Shown one piece after another: positions 22,561 to 37,504 of a DNA stretch of 37,504 nt. The position numbers were made by a program, and so were the translations under genes. The stretch's first letter is position 1. Every line of letters begins with the position of its first letter. This DNA comes from a virus (taxonomy: Duplodnaviria > Heunggongvirae > Uroviricota > Caudoviricetes): the IMG/VR virus record IMGVR_UViG_649989947_000021; one strand, 5' to 3'. The notes below the pieces were generated by a model that was given only the letters and a program-made list of their open reading frames with translations, made no database searches and was not told the origin of the DNA.

Positions 22561-23889
22561 CTGAGAGATCCCCTCATAATTTCCCCAAAGCGTAACCATG
22601 TGTGAATAAATTTTGAGCTAGTAGGGTTGCAGCCACGAGTAAGTCTTCCCTTGTTATTGTGTAGCCAGAATGCCGCAAAACTTCCATGCCTAAGCGAACT
22701 GTTGAGAGTACGTTTCGATTTCTGACTGTGTTAGCCTGGAAGTGCTTGTCCCAACCTTGTTTCTGAGCATGAACGCCCGCAAGCCAACATGTTAGTTGAA
22801 GCATCAGGGCGATTAGCAGCATGATATCAAAACGCTCTGAGCTGCTCGTTCGGCTATGGCGTAGGCCTAGTCCGTAGGCAGGACTTTTCAAGTCTCGGAA
22901 GGTTTCTTCAATCTGCATTCGCTTCGAATAGATATTAACAAGTTGTTTGGGTGTTCGAATTTCAACAGGTAAGTTAGTTGCTAGAACCCATGGCTCCTTT
23001 GCCGACGCTGAGTAGATTTTAGGTGACGGGTGGTGACAATGAGTCCGTGTCGAGCGCTGATTTTTTCGGCCTTTAGAGCGAGATTTATACAATAGAATTT
23101 GGCATGAGATTGGATTGCTTTTAGTCAGCCTCTTATAGCCTAAAGTCTTTGAGTGACTAGATGACATATCATGTAAGTTGCTGATAGGTTTCCAGTTTTC
23201 CGCTCCTAGGTCTGCATATTGTACTTTTCCTCTTACTCGACTTAACCAGTACCAACCCAGCTTCTCAACGGATTTATACCATGGCACTTTAAAGCCAGCA
23301 TCACTGACAATGAGCGGTGTGGTGTTACTCGGTAGAATGCTCGCAAGGTCGGCTAGAAATTGGTCATGAGCTTTCTTTGAACATTGCTCTGAAAGCGGGA
23401 ACGCTTTCTCATAAAGAGTAACAGAACGACCGTGTAGTGCGACTGAAGCTCGCAATACCATAAGTCGTTTTTGCTCACGAATATCAGACCAGTCAACAAG
23501 TACAATGGGCATCGTATTGCCCGAACAGATAAAGCTAGCATGCCAACGGTATACAGCGAGTCGCTCTTTGTGGAGGTGACGATTACCTAACAATCGGTCG
23601 ATTCGTTTGATGTTATGTTTTGTTCTCGCTTTGGTTGGCAGGTTACGGCCAAGTTCGGTAAGAGTGAGAGTTTTACAGTCAAGTAATGCGTGGCAAGCCA
23701 ACGTTAAGCTGTTGAGTCGTTTTAAGTGTAATTCGGGGCAGAATTGGTAAAGAGAGTCGTGTAAAATATCGAGTTCGCACATCTTGTTGTCTGATTATTG
23801 ATTTTTCGCGAAACCATTTGATCATATGACAAGATGTGTATCCACCTTAACTTAATGATTTTTACCAAAATCATTAGGGGATTCATCAG
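22561..23889 (-). mobile_element. IS10 insertion sequence (IS4 family), 1329 bp
   Basis: Inside end CTGAGAGATCCCCTCATAATTTCCCC at 22561 and outside end (reverse complement) CTGATGAATCCCCTAATGATTTTGGTAAAAATCATTAAG ending at 23889; full 402-aa transposase; 9-bp flanking direct repeats. Confidence 0.95.
22574..23782 (-). CDS. tnp: IS10 transposase
   Basis: 402-aa ORF MCELDILHDSLYQFCPELHLKRLNSLTLACHALLDCKTLTLTELGRNLPTKARTKHNIKRIDRLLGN..., IS10 transposase by recall. Confidence 0.95.
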   Translation of the reverse strand: MCELDILHDSLYQFCPELHLKRLNSLTLACHALLDCKTLTLTELGRNLPTKARTKHNIKRIDRLLGNRHLHKERLAVYRWHASFICSGNTMPIVLVDWSDIREQKRLMVLRASVALHGRSVTLYEKAFPLSEQCSKKAHDQFLADLASILPSNTTPLIVSDAGFKVPWYKSVEKLGWYWLSRVRGKVQYADLGAENWKPISNLHDMSSSHSKTLGYKRLTKSNPISCQILLYKSRSKGRKNQRSTRTHCHHPSPKIYSASAKEPWVLATNLPVEIRTPKQLVNIYSKRMQIEETFRDLKSPAYGLGLRHSRTSSSERFDIMLLIALMLQLTCWLAGVHAQKQGWDKHFQANTVRNRNVLSTVRLGMEVLRHSGYTITREDLLVAATLLAQNLFTHGYALGKL

Positions 23890-28795: not shown

Positions 28796-28856
28796 GGATT
28801 CCTCCTCACATGGCTGGTGGTCTCCCCAAAGGCTGCCAGCCCCTTTCCGAATCAAC

Positions 28857-29225
28857 TCACTTAAATTTCGTCGCACGAATAACGTCAATTCCGTTCTCGC
28901 TATATCGAAGAGGGTGCTTACCATCCCTGAGCAGGACAAAGCCTGACATCCCCTCAGGTAGCTGAGCCAGCTTCATCAACGAACGGTTGCGGGGAGACTT
29001 CTTATCGACCTCAATGGCACACTGCTGGCCGTCTGATGATGTAACCAGGCAATCAATAAACCCTTTACGACCACCGCTAATGCTGATGCTGAAATTGCGT
29101 TGCAGATGGTATCCCTGAGACTTGATTTTTTTCTGCATCACATAATCGAAAACGACTTTGTCATCGGAGCGAATGAATTGCTCTTCCAGGAGAGTGATTA
29201 AATTTTGCTTCAGGTCTTCACTCAT
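28857..29225 (-). CDS. hypothetical protein, possible PD-(D/E)xK nuclease fold
   Basis: 122-aa ORF; motif GFIDCLV ... AIEVDKK resembles PD-(D/E)xK; weak assignment. Confidence 0.35.
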   Translation of the reverse strand: MSEDLKQNLITLLEEQFIRSDDKVVFDYVMQKKIKSQGYHLQRNFSISISGGRKGFIDCLVTSSDGQQCAIEVDKKSPRNRSLMKLAQLPEGMSGFVLLRDGKHPLRYSENGIDVIRATKFK

Positions 29226-29474
29226 ACTTTTTTATCCATCTTGTACTAGCTTTCTGGTACAGCCGTTTTTTCAGGGGTATCCCCCTTTAGATCGAGATCT
29301 ACCTAACCTATGTACCCGTCTGTTGGAAAAGCCTGTTCCAGTGCTTCGCACTAACACACGGGCACTCCTCCCCCTCCCCTCCTCTCATTGAATTTTGTGC
29401 GTACTCTTTAACTAGTACAAAAATGCAATGAGATTTGGGATTCAGCCACCGGACACCTTTAAGCCCGGTACCAA

Positions 29475-29768
29475 TCAGGAGCGCGATTGCGTTCCTGCCA
29501 GGGGCGGCTGAGTTGTATACCCCTGTAAAGCTCTGCCCTGATTTCTCACAAACAAGCGGAGCCTTGTGTTTGCTTCGTGCCTTGCTCTGTTCTCCTTGCG
29601 GAATGAAACAGGCTCAGCGTCAAAAGTGATTTCGTATACCTCCGCATATTTCAGGGCGACCTTCCGTCTCAGTGACGGAGGCAGCCCCTGTAACTGCTGC
29701 TGAATCCACTCTTCGTCTGCCTGGCAGTGCCTAGATGGCATCTCTGTCTGAACGTAATTCTGGGACAT
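29475..29768 (-). CDS. hypothetical protein in the cII position
   Basis: 97-aa ORF, 12 nt downstream of the cro-like stop, with GAAGGG ribosome-binding site; no similarity to lambda cII that I can see. Confidence 0.5.
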   Translation of the reverse strand: MSQNYVQTEMPSRHCQADEEWIQQQLQGLPPSLRRKVALKYAEVYEITFDAEPVSFRKENRARHEANTRLRLFVRNQGRALQGYTTQPPLAGTQSRS

Positions 29769-29780
29769 ACAAGCCCTTCA

Positions 29781-30053
29781 TCATTCGTTTTTCATAACTG
29801 CCGCATTTGTGGCTGTGTGACTTCTACGTAACAAATCAGGGATTGCATCTTCAGGATGGGGATAAAGATCTGGTCTTAACCCATGAGGAGTAACTTTCCA
29901 TTCCACAACTTCACATACACGCAAGACGAAACGAGCAGGAATTGTTCTTTTTGAAAACCATTGGTTCACAGCTTGCGGCGTAACGCCTAGATTTCGCGCT
30001 ATGGCATTTTGTGCAATTAGCTCACGAAGTGCGTCGTAATCATTTCCTTTCAT
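29781..30053 (-). CDS. cro: Cro-like HTH repressor (YdaS-like)
   Basis: 90-aa ORF MKGNDYDALRELIAQNAIARNLGVTPQAVNQWFSKRTIP... with helix-turn-helix; divergent from cI across an operator region. Confidence 0.7.
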   Translation of the reverse strand: MKGNDYDALRELIAQNAIARNLGVTPQAVNQWFSKRTIPARFVLRVCEVVEWKVTPHGLRPDLYPHPEDAIPDLLRRSHTATNAAVMKNE

Positions 30054-30187
30054 CGCAACCCACCAATCTAAACTTTATAAATTCAAGATTACATCAAGTT
30101 TAAATTAACATGCAAGTCCACAAAAGATCGAATACACTAAAATCAAGTAAAAATTTATCGAAACCAAGTAACCAGCAAGGATTAACA
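30054..30187. promoter_or_regulatory. OR-like region with divergent promoters and repeated AATCAAGT-type motifs
   Basis: Intergenic between cro-like (minus) and cI (plus); repeated CAAGT-containing motifs including the 13-mer AAATCAAGTAAAA at 30140..30152; candidate minus-strand promoter -35 TTGCAT (30115..30110), 16-bp spacer, -10 TGTAAT (30093..30088). Confidence 0.45.
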
Positions 30188-30877
30188 ATGAAAAACTTAA
30201 AGAGCACTGAAAATCGAATTACAAAGCTGCTACAGGAGAAAGGCTGGAGCCAAGCAGAGCTGGCCCGAAAATTAGGTGTCAGCGCACAGTCCGTACAGTA
30301 CTGGACAACAGGAAAAACATTTCCAAGGGGAAACCGGCTTGCCCAGTTATCCGAAATAAGTGGTTATCCGCAATCGTGGTTTTTAGGAGAAATCACGTCA
30401 CGGCAGTTCTCTTCAAAGGAAAAACATCAAGCAAGAACTGACAGTGTGGTCTTTAACGTGCTCGATGTTGAGTTTAGTTGCGGCGATGGAACACATGTCC
30501 GTGGGGACTTTATCGATGTAGTTCGCTCAATCGAGCTTGATCCTGAATATGCCCGTCGCCTTGTTGGCAATAGAGCATTTCAAAACATAGAGATTGGTAA
30601 CGCAAGAGGAGATAGTATGGCTCCAACAATAGCCCCAGGAGATCTTCTTTTTCTCGATAAAACAGTGAATTACTTTGATGGTGATGGCATTTATGCTTTT
30701 TGCTTTGATGGTGAATGCTACGTCAAAAGATTACAAAAGATAGGAAGTAAAATCATGGTGTTATCTGATAACCCAAATTACCAATCCTGGAGCATTGAAA
30801 AAGATGCTCTTGAGCTGCTTTATATCCAATCGAAGGTAATCTCATCTGTTCCATTCAATATAAATAGATTTGGTTAA
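30188..30877 (+). CDS. cI: CI-like repressor (HTH_XRE N-terminus plus S24 LexA-like autopeptidase C-terminus)
   Basis: HTH LLQEKGWSQAELARKLGVSAQSVQYW; C-terminal GDSMAPTI ... K motif; start set at ATG 30188 with AGGA upstream; an alternative upstream ATG at 30110 exists. Confidence 0.85.
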   Translation: MKNLKSTENRITKLLQEKGWSQAELARKLGVSAQSVQYWTTGKTFPRGNRLAQLSEISGYPQSWFLGEITSRQFSSKEKHQARTDSVVFNVLDVEFSCGDGTHVRGDFIDVVRSIELDPEYARRLVGNRAFQNIEIGNARGDSMAPTIAPGDLLFLDKTVNYFDGDGIYAFCFDGECYVKRLQKIGSKIMVLSDNPNYQSWSIEKDALELLYIQSKVISSVPFNINRFG

Positions 30878-30939
30878 TTATTGATTATTAAAGAAAAATT
30901 TACAAATCAAGTAAAAGAGACGCAGAAATCAATTTTTTC

Positions 30940-30969
30940 TTGACAACTCCATCAATCAAGATCTAACAT
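30940..30969 (+). promoter_or_regulatory. PL-like early-left promoter
   Basis: -35 TTGACA (30940..30945), 18-bp spacer, -10 TAACAT (30964..30969); flanked by AATCAAGT-type motifs including AAATCAAGTAAAA at 30904..30916. Confidence 0.45.
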
Positions 30970-31023
30970 CACACCATCAATTTTGACTTGATTTATTGTT
31001 AATTTTAAATTGATGGTGATTCA

Positions 31024-31452
31024 ATGAAAGATCTGACAACCGCTGAGATATCGAACTTAAACCACTTCGAAAAAGAATCCTTTGCATTAAATATTGCAAA
31101 TCTGGTAGGTGCTGCTCGTACTTTCCATTTAATTGATGGTGATCGCTCTAAAGAATTGGGGTTTGAAGTCATGGAGTTTGTTCATGAATACGCCCTGTCT
31201 GCTACTTATCCATTACATAATCACATAATCAACAAACAACCAAATAAAATCCGCACCCAACGCGAAGCCTGCGGCTTAACAACCGCCGAACTCGCCAGGC
31301 TGCTCGATCTCGATGAAGAAATTATCATCCAGTGGGAAAGCGGAGAGTACGAACCAACCATCAGCATGCTTATCCCTCTGGCTAATGTTCTTGGCTGTGA
31401 TCCAATGTTGTTATTGACTGATGCTTATAAACAAAATCAGGAGGAAGCATAA
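31024..31452 (+). CDS. first early-left gene: protein with C-terminal HTH_XRE domain and unknown N-terminal domain
   Basis: 142-aa ORF; C-terminal GLTTAELARLLDLDEEIIIQWESGEYEPTISMLIPLANVLGCDP is HTH_XRE-like; not N-like. Confidence 0.6.
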   Translation: MKDLTTAEISNLNHFEKESFALNIANLVGAARTFHLIDGDRSKELGFEVMEFVHEYALSATYPLHNHIINKQPNKIRTQREACGLTTAELARLLDLDEEIIIQWESGEYEPTISMLIPLANVLGCDPMLLLTDAYKQNQEEA

Positions 31453-31453
31453 G

Positions 31454-31645
31454 ATGAAAATGTTCAAAGGCCTTACCAACGAACCGGAGACAGCTTTTCA
31501 TCACATTGCCGTACTGCTTGAAGCGGGGTTAATCATTTCGGCTTCCGGTGATGAAGAATGTGATGAACTTTCGGATGATATCTTTTTACTGGCACAACAA
31601 TACGCCAAAAGCGCATGCGATGCATTTAAGGAGCAAAGAACATGA
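31454..31645 (+). CDS. small acidic protein
   Basis: 63-aa ORF MKMFKGLTNEPETAFHHIAVLLEAGLIISASGDEECDELSDD...; GGAGG upstream; starts 1 nt after the previous stop. Confidence 0.5.
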   Translation: MKMFKGLTNEPETAFHHIAVLLEAGLIISASGDEECDELSDDIFLLAQQYAKSACDAFKEQRT

Positions 31646-31833
31646 TAACTCCATTAAATATTCTTGAGGAAGTGGCGGCACAAATAAAAGAGAATACATC
31701 AATGCTTGAATTTATATTTAAGAATTCGCCCGACCAAGGAGAGACAGACGATTATTTATGCTGTCTCATTCGCTCCATGAATAAGACCTGTGAAATGGCT
31801 TACGAGTATATAGAAACACTACGCAACGAATAA
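31642..31833 (+). CDS. small acidic protein
   Basis: 63-aa ORF MITPLNILEEVAAQIKENTSMLEFIFKNSPDQGETDDYLCC...; ATGA overlap with the previous gene; AAGGAG upstream. Confidence 0.5.
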   Translation: MITPLNILEEVAAQIKENTSMLEFIFKNSPDQGETDDYLCCLIRSMNKTCEMAYEYIETLRNE

Positions 31834-32017
31834 AGAACACTCAGTAAAAAATCACACATAAAAACATGACGGCCTCTGGTCGTGGATTTCCACAACCAGA
31901 AAATAATGGTGATGCATGAAAAATAGAAACGCTTATAAAACCGCATTATTAATGGCTAATGCAGGATACTGGTCAGTTGCAATACTGTTTCTCAGAAAAG
32001 CATACGGGAAATAACAA

Positions 32018-32377
32018 ATGGCATGTACAACCATTTATAAAGATCGTCGCCGCATGGTAACAGCGGCACTCCGGCGGATGCAACGTAAAACAGGTAGTAA
32101 TCTGCTCGTCGTTGACCTCCCGGACGGAGAAATAACAACGATAGAAATAACTGAACAGTTCATGAACCAGTTGTTATTACGATTTGAGGGTCTTACCCGT
32201 GTTGAATATGGACGGACGGAAGGAGAAGCAACAATCCGTACCGCATACCAGAATGCCATCGGTATTAATCAACACACGGAATATCTCACTGAATCAGGGA
32301 AACTGATAGTGGACGGCCTTTTAAAAGAGGTTGTTGACTACGTAAAAGAGAAATATATCAGTGGAGGAATTAACTGA
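32018..32377 (+). CDS. hypothetical protein
   Basis: 119-aa ORF. Confidence 0.5.
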   Translation: MACTTIYKDRRRMVTAALRRMQRKTGSNLLVVDLPDGEITTIEITEQFMNQLLLRFEGLTRVEYGRTEGEATIRTAYQNAIGINQHTEYLTESGKLIVDGLLKEVVDYVKEKYISGGIN

Positions 32378-32586
32378 TGTCTGATTTATCCCCTCTTATA
32401 CACGAAAAAGTACAGATCATTATGACGATTGAAAATGGTCAGGTAATAAATACCCGTAAAGTTCACAATAACGAGATGATTGCCAGCATGGATACCTTCT
32501 TGTGGATAGCAAAGAAAGCGGGATATCAGGTAATCGCTCCTGATCTGGAGGAAATCGGTGACATTAACAGCAATACGAATTCCTGA
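32377..32586 (+). CDS. hypothetical small protein
   Basis: 69-aa ORF; start overlaps the previous stop; GGAGG upstream. Confidence 0.45.
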   Translation: MSDLSPLIHEKVQIIMTIENGQVINTRKVHNNEMIASMDTFLWIAKKAGYQVIAPDLEEIGDINSNTNS

Positions 32587-32779
32587 GTGGGTGCACCTGC
32601 AGGCGGTCCGTGTTCTCCGCCAGTTCAGAGCCAGACGAATTCATCCCTGTCGTATGCACGGCTCCGGAAACCTGAGTCTGAGGGTTAATCGCCGCTGGCG
32701 GCTGCTGTCCCGAGACGGCGGCCAGAACTGGGAAGTAATGAGCCATGAACGATACAGCAAAGTTAAGGACCGGAAATGA
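32558..32779 (+). CDS. HigB-like (RelE/ParE superfamily) toxin homolog, probably an N-terminally replaced remnant
   Basis: GTG start with GGAGG 7 nt upstream; IHPCRMHGSGNLSLRVNRRWRLLSRDGGQNWEVMSHERY resembles the HigB C-terminus (LHPLKGDREGYWSITVRANWRITFQFINGDAYILNYEDYH) by recall; homology lies in a GC-rich patch between two EcoRI sites. Confidence 0.4.
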   Translation: MTLTAIRIPEWVHLQAVRVLRQFRARRIHPCRMHGSGNLSLRVNRRWRLLSRDGGQNWEVMSHERYSKVKDRK

Positions 32780-32812
32780 ACAATAAACCTTCAAACCAAA
32801 AGGAGAGTATTG

Positions 32813-33391
32813 ATGATTAATTCAACCATTACCCCTGAACCTACATTAACAGGCATCCGTTTTGGTAATCGAATTATTGGTTATTCAACTGCGGTTCGCC
32901 AGATCGACAACGGTAACTATGACAAACGAATTCCGGACGGGCTCGATCTGATAGCTTGCATTATGGAAGGGATTGAAAGCGGCTGGTTTATGCCGTGTAT
33001 TGAAAAACAAATCATCCTATGGCGCTGGCTTGTTGTCGCCGTGTTCATTGCTGAGGAGCAGGAGAAGAACGGGACTGTCGATGTTCAGAATGACAAGGGC
33101 GGCGTAGATACAGCCGTTGTATACACAGGAAAACCCGGTTCAATCAGCATTTATCCATGGTCTGAGCGCTTCGCGCTCGCTAACCATATCGAGGCGGGCG
33201 CAATTGAAAAATACGGGCCTGACGTTGGCCAGCAGATGGCGCTGCGTATGTATCAGGACATGGTTGTAACTGACGAGAAATGCGGATTCAGGCTGTCAGC
33301 GATGGGCCGGGAGGGACTCAACATACTACATGACAGCTTCATTGAACTGATTCAGAAAGACGGTATGCCAGACATGCCGGTTATGCACTGA
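32813..33391 (+). CDS. hypothetical protein
   Basis: 192-aa ORF with GGAG 6 nt upstream of ATG 32813. Confidence 0.55.
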   Translation: MINSTITPEPTLTGIRFGNRIIGYSTAVRQIDNGNYDKRIPDGLDLIACIMEGIESGWFMPCIEKQIILWRWLVVAVFIAEEQEKNGTVDVQNDKGGVDTAVVYTGKPGSISIYPWSERFALANHIEAGAIEKYGPDVGQQMALRMYQDMVVTDEKCGFRLSAMGREGLNILHDSFIELIQKDGMPDMPVMH

Positions 33392-34487: not shown

Positions 34488-34709
34488 ATGAAAATCCAAT
34501 ACCAGGACTATGGCGCCGTAGCGAACATCGTGATCACCAGTTCCTGCCTGACATTGCAAAAGCATAACCGCGTTGTTGATGCGGTGCTGTTTAATGTACA
34601 GGGGATCTCTGAAAACCGCAGCGGCTTTTTCTGGGTTAAGTCATCGTTGTCAGGAAAAACACGCGACATCCTGCGCGCCTACAAAATCGTACAGCGGGAG
34701 GCAAAGTGA
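34488..34709 (+). CDS. hypothetical protein
   Basis: 73-aa ORF starting right after the previous stop. Confidence 0.45.
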   Translation: MKIQYQDYGAVANIVITSSCLTLQKHNRVVDAVLFNVQGISENRSGFFWVKSSLSGKTRDILRAYKIVQREAK

Positions 34710-34804
34710 TGAAGTCATTCCTCCTGTCCATACTGTTTAGTCTGCTGCTGGCGTCCGTCGTTTTCGGTACGCTGATTGAATATAAATTTTTAATGAATTA
34801 CTGA
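34709..34804 (+). CDS. 31-aa hydrophobic single-helix micro-protein
   Basis: GGGAGG then 8 nt then ATG overlapping the previous stop (TGATG); encodes MKSFLLSILFSLLLASVVFGTLIEYKFLMNY; below the ORF-track size cutoff. Confidence 0.45.
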   Translation: MKSFLLSILFSLLLASVVFGTLIEYKFLMNY

Positions 34805-34812
34805 GGTGCGGG

Positions 34813-34968
34813 GTGGGCAAGATCAAAAACCCAGTTGTACTTATCCATAAGCGAGAAAATAGTGACTCCTACGCCGTTACAATCACCTGCGGTAGCCAGA
34901 ACTATCACGACGCCGTTCTGATGGCGTCGATGGAACTGGATATGAGTGACGATGATGTCGATACCTAG
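34813..34968 (+). CDS. possible 51-aa acidic small protein
   Basis: GTG start 5 nt after GAGG; MGKIKNPVVLIHKRENSDSYAVTITCGSQNYHDAVLMASMELDMSDDDVDT; fills the gap to the next gene. Confidence 0.3.
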   Translation: MGKIKNPVVLIHKRENSDSYAVTITCGSQNYHDAVLMASMELDMSDDDVDT

Positions 34969-34986
34969 AGTAAAACAGGCTATTAC

Positions 34987-35442
34987 ATGGCTGAAGAAAT
35001 CGAGCGACTGAAACAAGCACTTTCCGCTGCGGAAAATAATCTGATTGATTCCGAATGCCTCGTAGCTGAATTAAGCAAAGCAAAGGATCACGCATATGGG
35101 CTGGTCGACACATACGACTGGCAACGTCAGCGTCTCCACGCAGCCGCTGAGAAAGTCCTCAAATGGTGCAGACAAGAAGCTGAACACCGTACCGGCGATC
35201 CAGAGAAAGCAGAAAACTATGCGTGCGTTAAAGAACTACGCGACGCATTAACTTTTTGCAAAAGTTCTGAAAGCAGCAAGAAGAAAGGCCTGACTATCAC
35301 CCTGCCCGATATCACATCAAAGGCATTCTGGAGCGGTACCGGAAAAAACGCAAAATTCCATCCGGCAACCTATAAACGCTGGGTGAAAGAAGCTATTAAA
35401 CGGGATTGTGTTATTGCCGGGATCGGCGTGGAGGTGAAATGA
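34987..35442 (+). CDS. hypothetical protein
   Basis: 151-aa ORF MAEEIERLKQALSAAENNLIDSE... Confidence 0.55.
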   Translation: MAEEIERLKQALSAAENNLIDSECLVAELSKAKDHAYGLVDTYDWQRQRLHAAAEKVLKWCRQEAEHRTGDPEKAENYACVKELRDALTFCKSSESSKKKGLTITLPDITSKAFWSGTGKNAKFHPATYKRWVKEAIKRDCVIAGIGVEVK

Positions 35443-35525
35443 TGAATTGGCCTGAAGCATTCACCGCAGTAGGAGTTGCAATAGCGGTGGCATTTATTCT
35501 GTATTCGCTTTTCCGCTGGGGATAA
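35439..35525 (+). CDS. 28-aa hydrophobic micro-protein
   Basis: GGAGGTG then ATGATG overlapping the previous stop; encodes MMNWPEAFTAVGVAIAVAFILYSLFRWG. Confidence 0.4.
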   Translation: MMNWPEAFTAVGVAIAVAFILYSLFRWG

Positions 35526-35529
35526 AGGA

Positions 35530-35772
35530 ATGTTCGCTCTGATTCAACGTGGTCAGATATACACCGATAGTGCTGGCTACCCGATAAAAATTATTCGCTG
35601 CATAAACAACACTGTGTTGTACAGAAGAATGGATGGGCGAACACAGTCGGTAAAAATAAACGATTTTAATGAACTGTTTGAACGGATCGATCACCAGGAA
35701 TACCGACAAATTCTGGCAGAAACAGAGCAGGAAGCTCATCTGAAAAAATTACGAGCCATGAAAAGGAAGTAA
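35530..35772 (+). CDS. hypothetical protein
   Basis: 80-aa ORF with AAGGA upstream. Confidence 0.5.
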   Translation: MFALIQRGQIYTDSAGYPIKIIRCINNTVLYRRMDGRTQSVKINDFNELFERIDHQEYRQILAETEQEAHLKKLRAMKRK

Positions 35773-35775
35773 AGA

Positions 35776-35922
35776 ATGAATAAAGCATTTGAACGATGGG
35801 TCCACCAGCGTTACGGCAATCGCTATGACCTGACACGAGATGTTGACGGTTTCTACTGTCGTGAAATTGTGAAACGAATGTTTGAAGTGTGGTGCCACTG
35901 CCGTGGGCTGAGTGTTGTGTGA
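35776..35922 (+). CDS. 48-aa Cys-rich small protein (possible zinc-binding)
   Basis: AAGGAAG 6 nt upstream of ATG; MNKAFERWVHQRYGNRYDLTRDVDGFYCREIVKRMFEVWCHCRGLSVV. Confidence 0.35.
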   Translation: MNKAFERWVHQRYGNRYDLTRDVDGFYCREIVKRMFEVWCHCRGLSVV

Positions 35923-35929
35923 GGTTGGC

Positions 35930-36184
35930 ATGCAGACAATCATCTATCAGATAACCCCCAGCAAATGGTGTACGGAGAGAGTCCTCATTGCATCAACAGG
36001 GCTAAAGCCTGGCACCATTGAGCGGGCAAGAAGAAAGTCATGGATGCAGGGAAAAGAATACCGCCATTACGCTGTAGAAGGTGATCCGGGGCACTACAGT
36101 GAATGCCTGTACAACATCGAAGAAATTATGCGATGGATCGAAAACCAGAAACAACCAGGTGCCAAAAATGCAAGTTCCGGTTAA
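35930..36184 (+). CDS. xis: putative excisionase
   Basis: 84-aa ORF MQTIIYQITPSKWCTERVLIASTGLKPGTIERARRKSW... immediately upstream of int; GAGG 5 nt upstream; assignment by position and size. Confidence 0.5.
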   Translation: MQTIIYQITPSKWCTERVLIASTGLKPGTIERARRKSWMQGKEYRHYAVEGDPGHYSECLYNIEEIMRWIENQKQPGAKNASSG

Positions 36185-36217
36185 CCTGTTAATGCTCCTG
36201 GACGTCTGGGAGGTTTA

Positions 36218-37504
36218 ATGAGTAACGCATCATACCCGACAGGCGTTGAAAACCATGGAGGATCACTCCGTATATGGTTTCACTATAATGGCAAACGTGT
36301 CAGAGAAAACCTCGGTGTTCCTGACACAGCCAAAAACCGGAAGATCGCTGGTGAACTTCGCACTTCCGTTTGTTTTGCAATCAGAATGGGGAGTTTCGAC
36401 TACGCCGCGCAGTTCCCTAATTCCCCTAACCTGAAACACTTTGGTCTGGGAAAAAGAGAGATAACCGTTAAGGCACTTTCGGAAAAATGGTTGGACCTTA
36501 AGAAAATTGAGATTTGTGCGAATGCACTTAACCGTTACCAGTCAGTAATTAAAAACATGTTACCAATGTTAGGTGAAAAAAAACTGGTTTCATCCATAAC
36601 AAAAGAGGATTTACTTTTCGTAAGGAGAGATTTGTTGACCGGTTACCAAAAGCTTTCTAATGGAAAGACTTCTTCCATAAAAGGGCGCTCAGTGGTCACG
36701 GTAAACTACTATATGACAACCATAGCTGGAATGTTTCAATTTGCAACAGATAATGGTTATACCTCAGGAAACCCATTTAACGGTCTGGCTCCCTTAAAAA
36801 AGTCCAAGGTAAAACCAGATCCTCTCACCCGTGACGAATTTATTCGTTTTATTGAGGCTTGCCGTCATCAACAAACAAAAAACCTGTGGATTCTCGCTGT
36901 ATACACGGGTATTCGTCACGGGGAGTTGGTATCGCTGGCATGGGAAGATATAGACCTTAAAGCAAGGACTATAACCATCCGTAGAAATTATACAAAACTT
37001 GGCGAATTCACTCCACCAAAAACCGATGCAGGCACCGGAAGGACAATTCATCTGGTTCAACCAGCTATTGATGCTCTTAAAAGCCAGGCGGAAATGACCA
37101 TGCTTGGAAAGCAACATTCTGTAGAGGTGAAGCAGAGGGAATATGGGAGAACTGCTGTGCATAAATGCACTTTTGTTTTTAGTCCTCAGGTAACAAAACA
37201 GCAGCAGTTGTCCGGACCTCACTACAAGGTTGACTCCATCAGGGAGTCATGGACAAGTATCTTAAAACGCGCAGGTCTGAGACACAGAAAATCGTACCAA
37301 TCCAGGCATACTTATGCATGCTGGTCACTTGCCGCAGGAGCTAATCCTAGTTTTATCGCAAGCCAGATGGGCCACACAAACGCACAAATGGTATTCAATG
37401 TTTACGGAGCATGGATGAAAGACAACAATCACGAACAGATAGAACTCCTTAACAAAAGACTATCTGAAAGTGTCCCATGTATGCCCCATAAGAAAGTTGG
37501 GTAA
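36218..37504 (+). CDS. int: tyrosine site-specific integrase
   Basis: 428-aa ORF with C-terminal catalytic-region motifs (...RHTYACWSLAAGANPSFIASQMGHTNAQMVFNVYGAW...); stop codon is the last 3 bases of the window. Confidence 0.9.
   Translation: MSNASYPTGVENHGGSLRIWFHYNGKRVRENLGVPDTAKNRKIAGELRTSVCFAIRMGSFDYAAQFPNSPNLKHFGLGKREITVKALSEKWLDLKKIEICANALNRYQSVIKNMLPMLGEKKLVSSITKEDLLFVRRDLLTGYQKLSNGKTSSIKGRSVVTVNYYMTTIAGMFQFATDNGYTSGNPFNGLAPLKKSKVKPDPLTRDEFIRFIEACRHQQTKNLWILAVYTGIRHGELVSLAWEDIDLKARTITIRRNYTKLGEFTPPKTDAGTGRTIHLVQPAIDALKSQAEMTMLGKQHSVEVKQREYGRTAVHKCTFVFSPQVTKQQQLSGPHYKVDSIRESWTSILKRAGLRHRKSYQSRHTYACWSLAAGANPSFIASQMGHTNAQMVFNVYGAWMKDNNHEQIELLNKRLSESVPCMPHKKVG

Follow-up and report, generated by a model that had tools for sequence, protein, structure and literature searches.

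Which genes stand in the first slot of the leftward early (PL) operon of a prophage that lacks the antiterminator gene N? This question is raised by the virus record IMGVR_UViG_649989947_000021 (Caudoviricetes), whose 37,504 nucleotides we call the window, and in which the slot is held by three adjacent open reading frames (ORFs), ORF1, ORF2, and ORF3, encoding proteins of 142, 63, and 63 amino acids (aa). We found that the slot holds a module and not an N/nut system. ORF1, ORF2, and ORF3 (ORF1-3) are one module made from a single kind of part, a two-helix hairpin of ∼55 residues, because ORF2 and ORF3 are stand-alone versions of N-terminal domain types of the ORF1 family; an initial annotation of the sequence missed this. 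The structure and evolution of the module are clear, and its function is what we infer below. In a large group of Escherichia coli prophages, which have no N gene in this slot, transcription from the leftward early promoter starts with the module; its hairpin family has no Pfam or NCBIfam model and no solved relative.

Escherichia phage phi467 (LN997803.1), a 38.6-kb phage carrying the Shiga toxin (Stx) genes stx, matches region 30000-33000 of the window from end to end at 99.8% identity. The window coordinate equals the phi467 coordinate + 5954 in this region, and the offset no longer holds past ∼34.7 kb (34700-37504).

Three adjacent genes encode versions of one helical hairpin

As judged from their conservation, ORF1-3 are real genes, because they have strong PHROG matches (phrog_4836 at 1e-58, phrog_4587 at 2e-33, and phrog_6882 at 7e-40 for ORF1, ORF2, and ORF3) and diverged homologues in other phages preserve the reading frames at 40 to 50% identity. 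One nucleotide (nt) separates the TAA stop of ORF1 from the ATG of ORF2, the overlap of ORF2 and ORF3 is ATGA, and the Shine-Dalgarno sequences are GGTGA (ORF1), AGGAGG (ORF2), and AAGGAG (ORF3). The products carry net charges of -12, -7, and -7, and in negative charge density ORF2 and ORF3 rank at the top of the 54 annotated phi467 proteins, with ORF1 third. The block has a GC content of 41.1%, below that of the window as a whole (50.5%) and of the structural genes (52-59%). The Pfam model HTH_3, a helix-turn-helix (HTH) domain, was matched by residues 76-127 of ORF1 (E = 3.5e-11), and the Pfam scan gave no match for ORF1 residues 1-70, ORF2, or ORF3. The initial annotation had described an AT-rich block at the start of the PL operon, with a 142-aa protein of C-terminal HTH_XRE domain and unassigned N-terminal domain, followed at 1-nt and ATGA spacing by two coupled acidic proteins of 63 aa; coordinates, isoelectric points, charges, and composition all agree with this, as do the operator-flanked promoter and the cI/cro layout described further on.

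Known families offered little beyond the HTH. Sequence searches of Pfam, NCBIfam, and the PDB returned nothing for ORF2 or ORF3, and for ORF1-3 together Pfam, NCBIfam, PADLOC, and the PDB gave no sequence match other than a generic HTH. No well-characterized phage regulator was matched by any of the three, and the labels given to ORF1, "CII-like regulator" in PHROGs and "DicA" in GenBank, are unsupported annotations. Literature searches on phi467 and on phage SaltyDalty gave no study of these genes.

The N-terminal domain of ORF1 is a helical hairpin of the family to which ORF2 belongs. We labeled the N-terminal domain types of the ORF1 family A (with A1 and A2), B, C, D/H, E, F, and G. Residues 16-61 of ORF1 match phrog_4587, the PHROG family of ORF2 (2.9e-7), and ORF2 is 39.6% identical over 48 aa to an N-terminal domain of type C (protein P0076; 37 bits). 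The same relationship appears in other prophages, where a 66-aa protein encoded after the HTH gene is 43-47% identical to the type A N-terminal domain of ORF1; the small protein encoded downstream in the same-immunity prophage L002 is 43% identical to the ORF1 domain over 44 aa. ORF3 represents a second helical-hairpin type, which is also used as an N-terminal domain in ORF1-family proteins; ORF3 is 33% identical over 60 aa (37 bits) to the type G N-terminal domain of the two-HTH protein P0088.

As a noncircular test, we built a profile hidden Markov model from free-standing proteins of ≤80 aa only and scaled its E-values to 1.84e9 sequences. This model found the HTH-fused N-termini of P0176 (1.2e-14), of type C (1.2e-9), and of type B (2.3e-6), with weaker matches to type A (1.4e-3) and to P0001 (6e-3), a protein 99% identical to ORF1, where residues 18-61 were aligned with 32.6 bits.

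AlphaFold2 predicted helices at residues 14-36 and 40-65 of ORF1, a low-confidence linker at 62-71, and a five-helix HTH (mean predicted local distance difference test score, pLDDT, of 73); for ORF3, it predicted a helical hairpin with helices at 4-28 and 34-62 (pLDDT 93). Structure prediction, which had been proposed with the initial annotation, revealed the hairpins of ORF1 and ORF3, the predicted fold being a generic helical hairpin. By hhalign, the ABC group that holds ORF1 and ORF2 was not connected to G (ORF3), D/H, or E. A superfamily joining the four hairpin groups is therefore unsupported by hhalign, and ABC, G, D/H, and E are tied only by position, length, and fold.

Hairpins are exchanged in front of an almost invariant HTH domain

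There are 158 homologues of ORF1 at E ≤0.001. All share one plan: a variable N-terminal domain (∼60-80 residues) and, after it, either a single XRE HTH domain or two (two in 87 of the 120 listed homologues); the HTH is almost invariant, and the N-terminal domains fall into several types with little or no mutual similarity. DNA similarity to the ORF1-3 region is present in 354 of 5426 complete E. coli genomes, and carriers of the module include Stx1a, Stx2a, and Stx2d phages, the stx-carrying phi467, and phiP27. Many E. coli genomes match 31252-31423 alone, which is the HTH-coding part, and this places a mosaic joint at the boundary between the hairpin and HTH domains. Whichever reading of its function holds, this constant domain with swapped hairpins is a natural set of chimeras usable in experiments. 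The constant HTH has no relatives in species-representative genomes, where two weak XRE matches, both unrelated, were the sole result.

The ABC hairpin is rare, its profile matching only 53 clusters in 1.84 billion representative proteins, 34 of which are ≤100 aa. Ten of the larger members were scanned; nine have HTH_XRE C-terminal to the hairpin, in one to three copies, and in none of the ten was any other fused domain found. Because HTH_XRE is the sole kind of fused domain and the HTH sequences of these members differ from the E. coli constant HTH, the combination of hairpin and XRE domain is old and specific. A third form, a free hairpin of ∼120 aa (P0145, P0158, P0182) has an extra N-terminal segment of ∼55 aa with the motif ADIVI.G..VVKNR, which recurs in the inter-HTH linker of the three-HTH protein P0180 (residues ∼165-185).

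We then compared gene order in 133 distinct locus sequences, taken from genomes and viral contigs. In 131 of them, the hairpin-XRE gene has at least one free hairpin gene directly after it, and distant members keep an S24 repressor gene, a hairpin-XRE gene, and then at least one free hairpin gene at 0-4 nt spacing. Downstream of the free hairpins, the order is a micro-ORF of 32-38 aa, a phrog_1737 gene, and a phrog_340 gene. Two free cassettes dominate the 133 loci: one, termed "a," is found with the fused types A, A2, B, C, D, and G; the other, ORF2+ORF3, is found with A1, B, and D. At locus L095, four genes with five hairpin-like modules between them come after an E-type hairpin-XRE gene. 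In L092:5844-6257, an ORF3-type hairpin and a second helical module form a single 137-aa protein, to whose N-terminal half ORF3 is 48% identical, and the second module stands free in L095:5551-5787. This natural fusion is a Rosetta-stone hint that neighboring modules associate.

Phage EKP1 (L011:4001-4421) has these two modules as two ORFs in different frames with a 35-nt overlap, which may reflect a frameshift or a sequencing error. Its host assignment looks surprising: the record (OM284015.1, "Elizabethkingia phage EKP1") names an Elizabethkingia host as deposited, and the phage has an enterobacterial-style cI/cro region, homologues of ORF3 (49%) and ORF2 (45%), and also the micro-ORF and the 119-aa gene described below. 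Genes in the same slot of E. coli K-12 prophages, YdfA/B/C of Qin and YdaF/G of Rac, proved unrelated (scores ≤3 bits).

The module opens a repressor-controlled operon

The gene layout supports ORF1-3 as the opening genes of a leftward operon, which is under repressor control and reaches xis and int, with a predicted transcription start, because an operator-flanked promoter sits between cI and ORF1 (Table 1). The gap between these two genes is 146 bp, and the -10 hexamer of PL ends 55 nt ahead of the start codon of ORF1. Repeats with the pattern ATCAAG...TTGAT lie on either side of the PL-like promoter and overlap it; they are also present between cI and cro: an exact 13-nt direct repeat occurs at 30140 and 30904, and 30140-30158 has inverted matches to 30976-30994 (89%) and 30928-30943 (88%). 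The leftward operator (OL)-like region is kept in L002, the PL-like promoter in L002 and L004, and the layout of promoter and operators is retained in a prophage whose repressor is 88% identical.

Table 1. Features of the immunity region, the hairpin module, and the rest of the operon (window coordinates)
Feature	Position	Strand	Description	Basis
ORF1	31024-31452	plus	142 aa, pI 4.69; N-terminal helical hairpin, flexible linker, single acidic XRE-type HTH	
ORF1 hairpin domain	31063-31218	plus	aa 14-65 (helices 14-36, 40-65); type A1, ABC family	AlphaFold2 + PHROG/profile
ORF1 XRE HTH domain	31240-31422	plus	aa 73-133; net charge -7	Pfam, alignment to P22 C2
ORF2	31454-31645	plus	63 aa, pI 4.45; free-standing ABC-family hairpin, nearest N-domain type C	
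ORF3	31642-31833	plus	63 aa, pI 4.31; free-standing G-type helical hairpin	
cro-like gene	29781-30053	minus	YdaS/P22_Cro type	Pfam/PHROG
cI-like repressor gene	30188-30877	plus	HTH_3 + Peptidase_S24; same strand as ORF1	Pfam/PHROG
OL-like operator cluster	30904-30994	not assigned		repeats common to cI-cro intergenic region
Operator-like repeat	30904-30916		AAATCAAGTAAAA	
Operator-like repeat	30928-30944		ATCAATTTTTTCTTGAC	
Operator-like repeat	30976-30992		ATCAATTTTGACTTGAT	
PL-like sigma-70 promoter	30940-30969	plus	TTGACA-18 nt-TAACAT	10/12 consensus positions
119-aa protein	32018-32377	plus	phrog_1737; N-terminal Arg-rich stretch KDRRRMVTAALRRMQRKTG	
Excisionase-like gene	35912-36184		5' of integrase ORF	
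Integrase ORF	36218-37504		428 aa; ends at the window's last base	

Two further elements were seen around the promoter. A perfect 12-nt inverted repeat, CACCATCAATTT / AAATTGATGGTG, lies at 30972-31018, in the stretch that separates the PL -10 hexamer from the start of ORF1, and is retained in L002 with one mismatch; as RNA, it has a folding energy of -18.7 kcal/mol (z = -2.96), and its 3' arm spans the GGTG ribosome-binding site of ORF1. It could be an operator pair or a hairpin for translational control. Immediately 3' of cI, same-immunity prophages have an intrinsic-terminator-like sequence, GGGCTTTGCCC + T6 (L002:5857-5890). This GGGCTTTGCCC element is missing after cI in the window (30878-30925) and in phi467, so cI transcripts might extend into ORF1-3.

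The N slot is occupied without an N/nut system

The initial annotation had reported neither an N-like gene nor nut-like boxes, and this held in every scan we made. None of the 19 early ORFs, which lie to both sides of the immunity region, matched an N family in Pfam and/or PHROGs, and boxA-like 10-mers were confined to the wrong strand or to places distant from the leaders. A scan for 5-bp stems with GNRNA loops gave a single match in the PL transcript, at 32293; we regard it as chance because it lies inside a coding region, that of the 119-aa protein, and its stem is missing from eight homologues. Rfam at a permissive threshold had no match in 28800-33000. A stem-loop at 31875-31898, CTGGTCGTGG-ATTT-CCACAACCAG, was set aside, having no U-tract and a pairing that is lost in relatives. 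The absence of N is thus correct, and it is already known for Stx phages of the Eru1 type, non-lambdoid phages in which N, CII, and CIII are absent (PMC8044961).

The further suggestion that early antitermination may work differently here carries less weight than it first seems to. That absence was published already, and a crude consensus scan, which is blind to Rho-dependent sites, gave no terminator-like plus-strand site in the 3.6 kb between PL and 34567, so there is perhaps nothing to antiterminate. The sole early gene with an N-terminal Arg-rich stretch is that of the 119-aa protein, in whose diverged homologues the stretch reads RRR...(R/Q)(R/K)TG. This gene is always syntenic with the hairpin module. 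As an analogue of N, the protein was rejected for want of a match to the N family.

The XRE domain of ORF1 is acidic

The nearest solved HTHs to that of ORF1, by sequence and by fold, are DNA-binding domains of the P22 C2 and 434 type. They share the five-helix XRE fold, with sequence E-values of 4e-5 to 1e-4 and a Foldseek target TM-score of 0.82-0.85 for the HTH part. Unlike these repressors, ORF1 has no S24 or other C-terminal domain and bears an N-terminal hairpin instead. Its recognition helix is DLDEEIIIQWESGE, where P22 C2 has GVSNVAISQWERSE at the aligned position, so that D-E-E stands for S-N-V at the start of the helix. From C2-operator structures, we take the GVSNVAISQWERSE stretch to begin the recognition helix and to include DNA-contacting residues. 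The net charge of the ORF1 HTH is -7, as opposed to +4 for the phage's own cI, +5 for Cro, and +6 for the P22 C2 N-terminal domain.

Relatives with several HTHs pair one acidic HTH (-6 to -9) with a near-neutral one, and distant single-HTH members have ordinary recognition helices. As ORF1 has the acidic kind only, its role as a DNA-binding regulator is an assumption, and its XRE domain may be protein-binding rather than DNA-binding. Two immunity types with the same HTH share only the ribosome-binding region, with no candidate for an autoregulatory inverted repeat.

Hairpin pairing as a possible function of the module

Our tentative preference is for partner binding between hairpins that modulates hairpin-XRE proteins, in the manner of SinR/SinI. 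The hairpins would be protein-protein recognition modules that pair into four-helix bundles, as two-helix hairpins of this size would usually do to bury their wide hydrophobic faces. When PL is derepressed, the free hairpins ORF2 and ORF3 would be made along with ORF1 by translational coupling. Their targets would be XRE proteins that bear a hairpin, whether from the phage itself or from co-resident prophages, and the binding would alter the oligomeric state and activity of these proteins. The logic would be as in SinR/SinI, where the small protein is the regulator's two-helix domain only and titrates the regulator. There, the helix pairs combine in a four-helix bundle between molecules, and the resulting heterodimer inactivates the regulator (PMC3163267).

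The resemblance to SinR/SinI (and SlrR/SlrA) of Bacillus subtilis lies in the parts. ORF1 is an XRE HTH protein with a two-helix domain, and adjacent to it is a small protein that is such a domain alone. The family of ORF2 matches the N-terminal domain of ORF1, and ORF3 matches that of the family member P0088, the types being unmatched in cis. Differences are that the hairpin of ORF1 is N-terminal, the reverse of the order in SinR, that here many hairpin types are interchangeable and up to three HTH copies occur, and that the setting is a phage PL operon. In favor of partner binding are the homology between free and fused hairpins, the conserved gene order, and the 1-nt spacing and ATGA overlap, which fit stoichiometric partners; the natural double-module fusion, together with translational coupling, also fits partner binding.

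Several observations weigh on the other side. ORF1-3 are all co-transcribed, and translationally coupled as well, whereas SinI is regulated separately from SinR. The Pfam SinI model has no match at E up to 0.1 in ORF1, ORF2, or ORF3. Hairpins of the G (ORF3-type), D/H, and E groups are without detectable homology to the ABC family of ORF1 and ORF2. In SaltyDalty, EKP1, and Fraca, free hairpins form arrays without HTH fusion, which include a homologue pair of ORF2-ORF3, and there the free proteins must act without a hairpin-XRE partner in cis. Fused and free hairpin types assort independently, so there is no cognate pairing in cis. Finally, the net charge of the ORF1 HTH and its exchange of D-E-E for S-N-V make even the term "regulator" uncertain. 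Among these points, independent assortment, the free-only arrays, co-transcription, and the acidic HTH count against a simple regulator-antagonist pair in cis.

The same four points would fit action in trans and are therefore consistent with hairpins that serve as a specificity code when co-resident prophages conflict or cross-talk, a version that we nevertheless think quite unlikely. The XRE protein of a prophage would bear one hairpin type and its free hairpins usually another. At induction in poly-lysogenic E. coli, free hairpins would titrate or rewire the hairpin-XRE proteins of other lambdoid prophages, and they would influence which prophages, Stx phages included, fire together. If the hairpins are parts of a partner switch, they would add an unstudied layer of control to the induction of Shiga toxin phages.

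Alternative functions

Instead of binding one another, the hairpins might be independent small acidic effectors for anti-defense or host takeover, the first of them tethered to an Aca-like XRE domain and each binding a host target such as a defense or DNA-binding protein. We regard this as the main rival reading, somewhat less likely than partner binding. It would accord with small, acidic, AT-rich genes placed first after an early promoter, with extreme mosaicism whose recombination joint falls exactly at the hairpin/HTH boundary, with as many as five hairpin modules in four genes, and with arrays that have no HTH fusion; independent assortment of types is what independent effectors would be expected to show, and the same operon of SaltyDalty has a Lar-like anti-restriction gene. 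In homologues of AcrIIA1, which like AcrIIA15 is a bifunctional anti-CRISPR, the non-HTH domain varies. A precedent exists in AcrIIA15, where an HTH autorepressor is joined to a DNA-mimicking inhibitor domain (PMC10901769), and the likeness to AcrIIA15/AcrIIA1 and to acr-aca loci extends to a conserved HTH fused to an effector domain, small acidic genes alongside, and an early promoter. However, the HTH of ORF1 is C-terminal and acidic and may not bind DNA, no autoregulatory inverted repeat is common to the two immunity types that have the same HTH, and cI and Cro already control PL. Moreover, at least four types unrelated in sequence keep one minimal fold and length, which argues for a common binding mode or a specificity code and not for diverse targets. 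The PADLOC matches of the module are to generic HTHs only (RmrA and the CapH N-terminal domain), so membership of a defense system was rejected. If the hairpins are counter-defense effectors, they would form a novel, highly compact effector family, unusual for its acidic XRE tether. A narrower form of the idea, put forward in the initial annotation, casts ORF2 and ORF3 as DNA mimics able to block restriction enzymes or other defense proteins that bind DNA. Like Ocr and ArdA, they are small, acidic, and expressed early, and their negative charge density is the highest in the phage. Yet the proposal found no direct support, and we consider it improbable: a net charge of -7 in 63 aa (∼ -0.11 per residue) is modest, no match to Ocr, ArdA, or another such family was obtained, the fold is a generic hairpin, and the same domains occur fused to XRE domains, which to our knowledge is not a feature of Ocr- or ArdA-type mimics. 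Ocr and similar classic mimics have a charge density far above that of ORF2 and ORF3.

Two other possibilities follow from the neighbors of the module. It could be a rexAB-like cassette, expressed in the lysogen by read-through from the cI transcript and serving in exclusion or in a toxin-antitoxin-like role. ORF1-3 are on the cI strand, the window lacks a terminator between cI and ORF1, unlike the L002-type prophages, and the HTH has weak similarities of the MqsA, HipB, and DicA type. We hold this to be very improbable, since an operator-flanked promoter stands between cI and ORF1, relatives terminate after cI, so that the module is not generally on the cI transcript, and no toxin-like partner was found, PADLOC giving generic HTHs only. 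A type II toxin-antitoxin pair was likewise rejected: ORF2 and ORF3 match no toxin family, and MqsA_antitoxin on ORF1 (E = 0.047) fell below the cut-off. The least probable explanation, to which we give almost no credence, is that N is replaced, in a non-N form of early antitermination, by the module or else by the Arg-rich protein of 119 aa encoded two genes farther downstream. The position is that of lambda N, the first gene slot after PL and downstream of the repressor gene; the module fills this slot in many N-less prophages, and the ORF at 32018-32377 has a conserved N-terminal Arg-rich stretch. But unlike lambda N/nut, the slot has no N match, no boxA/boxB or conserved leader hairpin, and no Arg-rich disordered protein, the PL strand is without a terminator-like site for 3.6 kb, and the 119-aa protein, from a reading of its sequence, is not disordered-looking like N. 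By analogy, the module would be best filed with systems of the small-protein-plus-regulator kind, having SinR/SinI-like or Acr/Aca-like logic, built from a new domain family, and placed in the N slot of Stx and lambdoid prophages that lack N; within that kind, partner binding between hairpins is the reading we tentatively keep.

Observations on neighboring sequences

Between ORF3 and the 119-aa gene lies the micro-ORF (31916-32014, plus strand), which encodes MKNRNAYKTALLMANAGYWSVAILFLRKAYGK (pI 10.4). It is conserved at 32-38 aa and ends in ...RKAYG(K/V/C/L), with counterparts at L010:4497-4613, L011:4494-4607, and L092:6327-6443. In the window and the closest E. coli loci, its stop is 3 nt 5' of the phrog_1737 gene; in SaltyDalty and EKP1, another hairpin gene stands between the two. 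The micro-ORF has no match in PHROGs and is unannotated in phi467.

A GC-rich island at 32558-32789 contains a 73-aa ORF of phrog_1525, whose homologue in L002 is tagged PF24732 ParE_like. The island DNA is 93% identical to Aeromonas phage AsXd-1 and 84% identical to the coliphages CharmingMan and LMessi; from these identities, it looks like a recently exchanged moron.

Farther upstream, 23775-23844 (plus strand) is a full-length match to Rfam RNA-OUT, the IS10 antisense RNA (98.8 bits, E = 1.2e-19). The match falls between stx and the gene for a Q-like antiterminator, where phi467 is annotated with two hypothetical coding sequences, and suggests that a remnant of the IS10 type adjoins the toxin genes.

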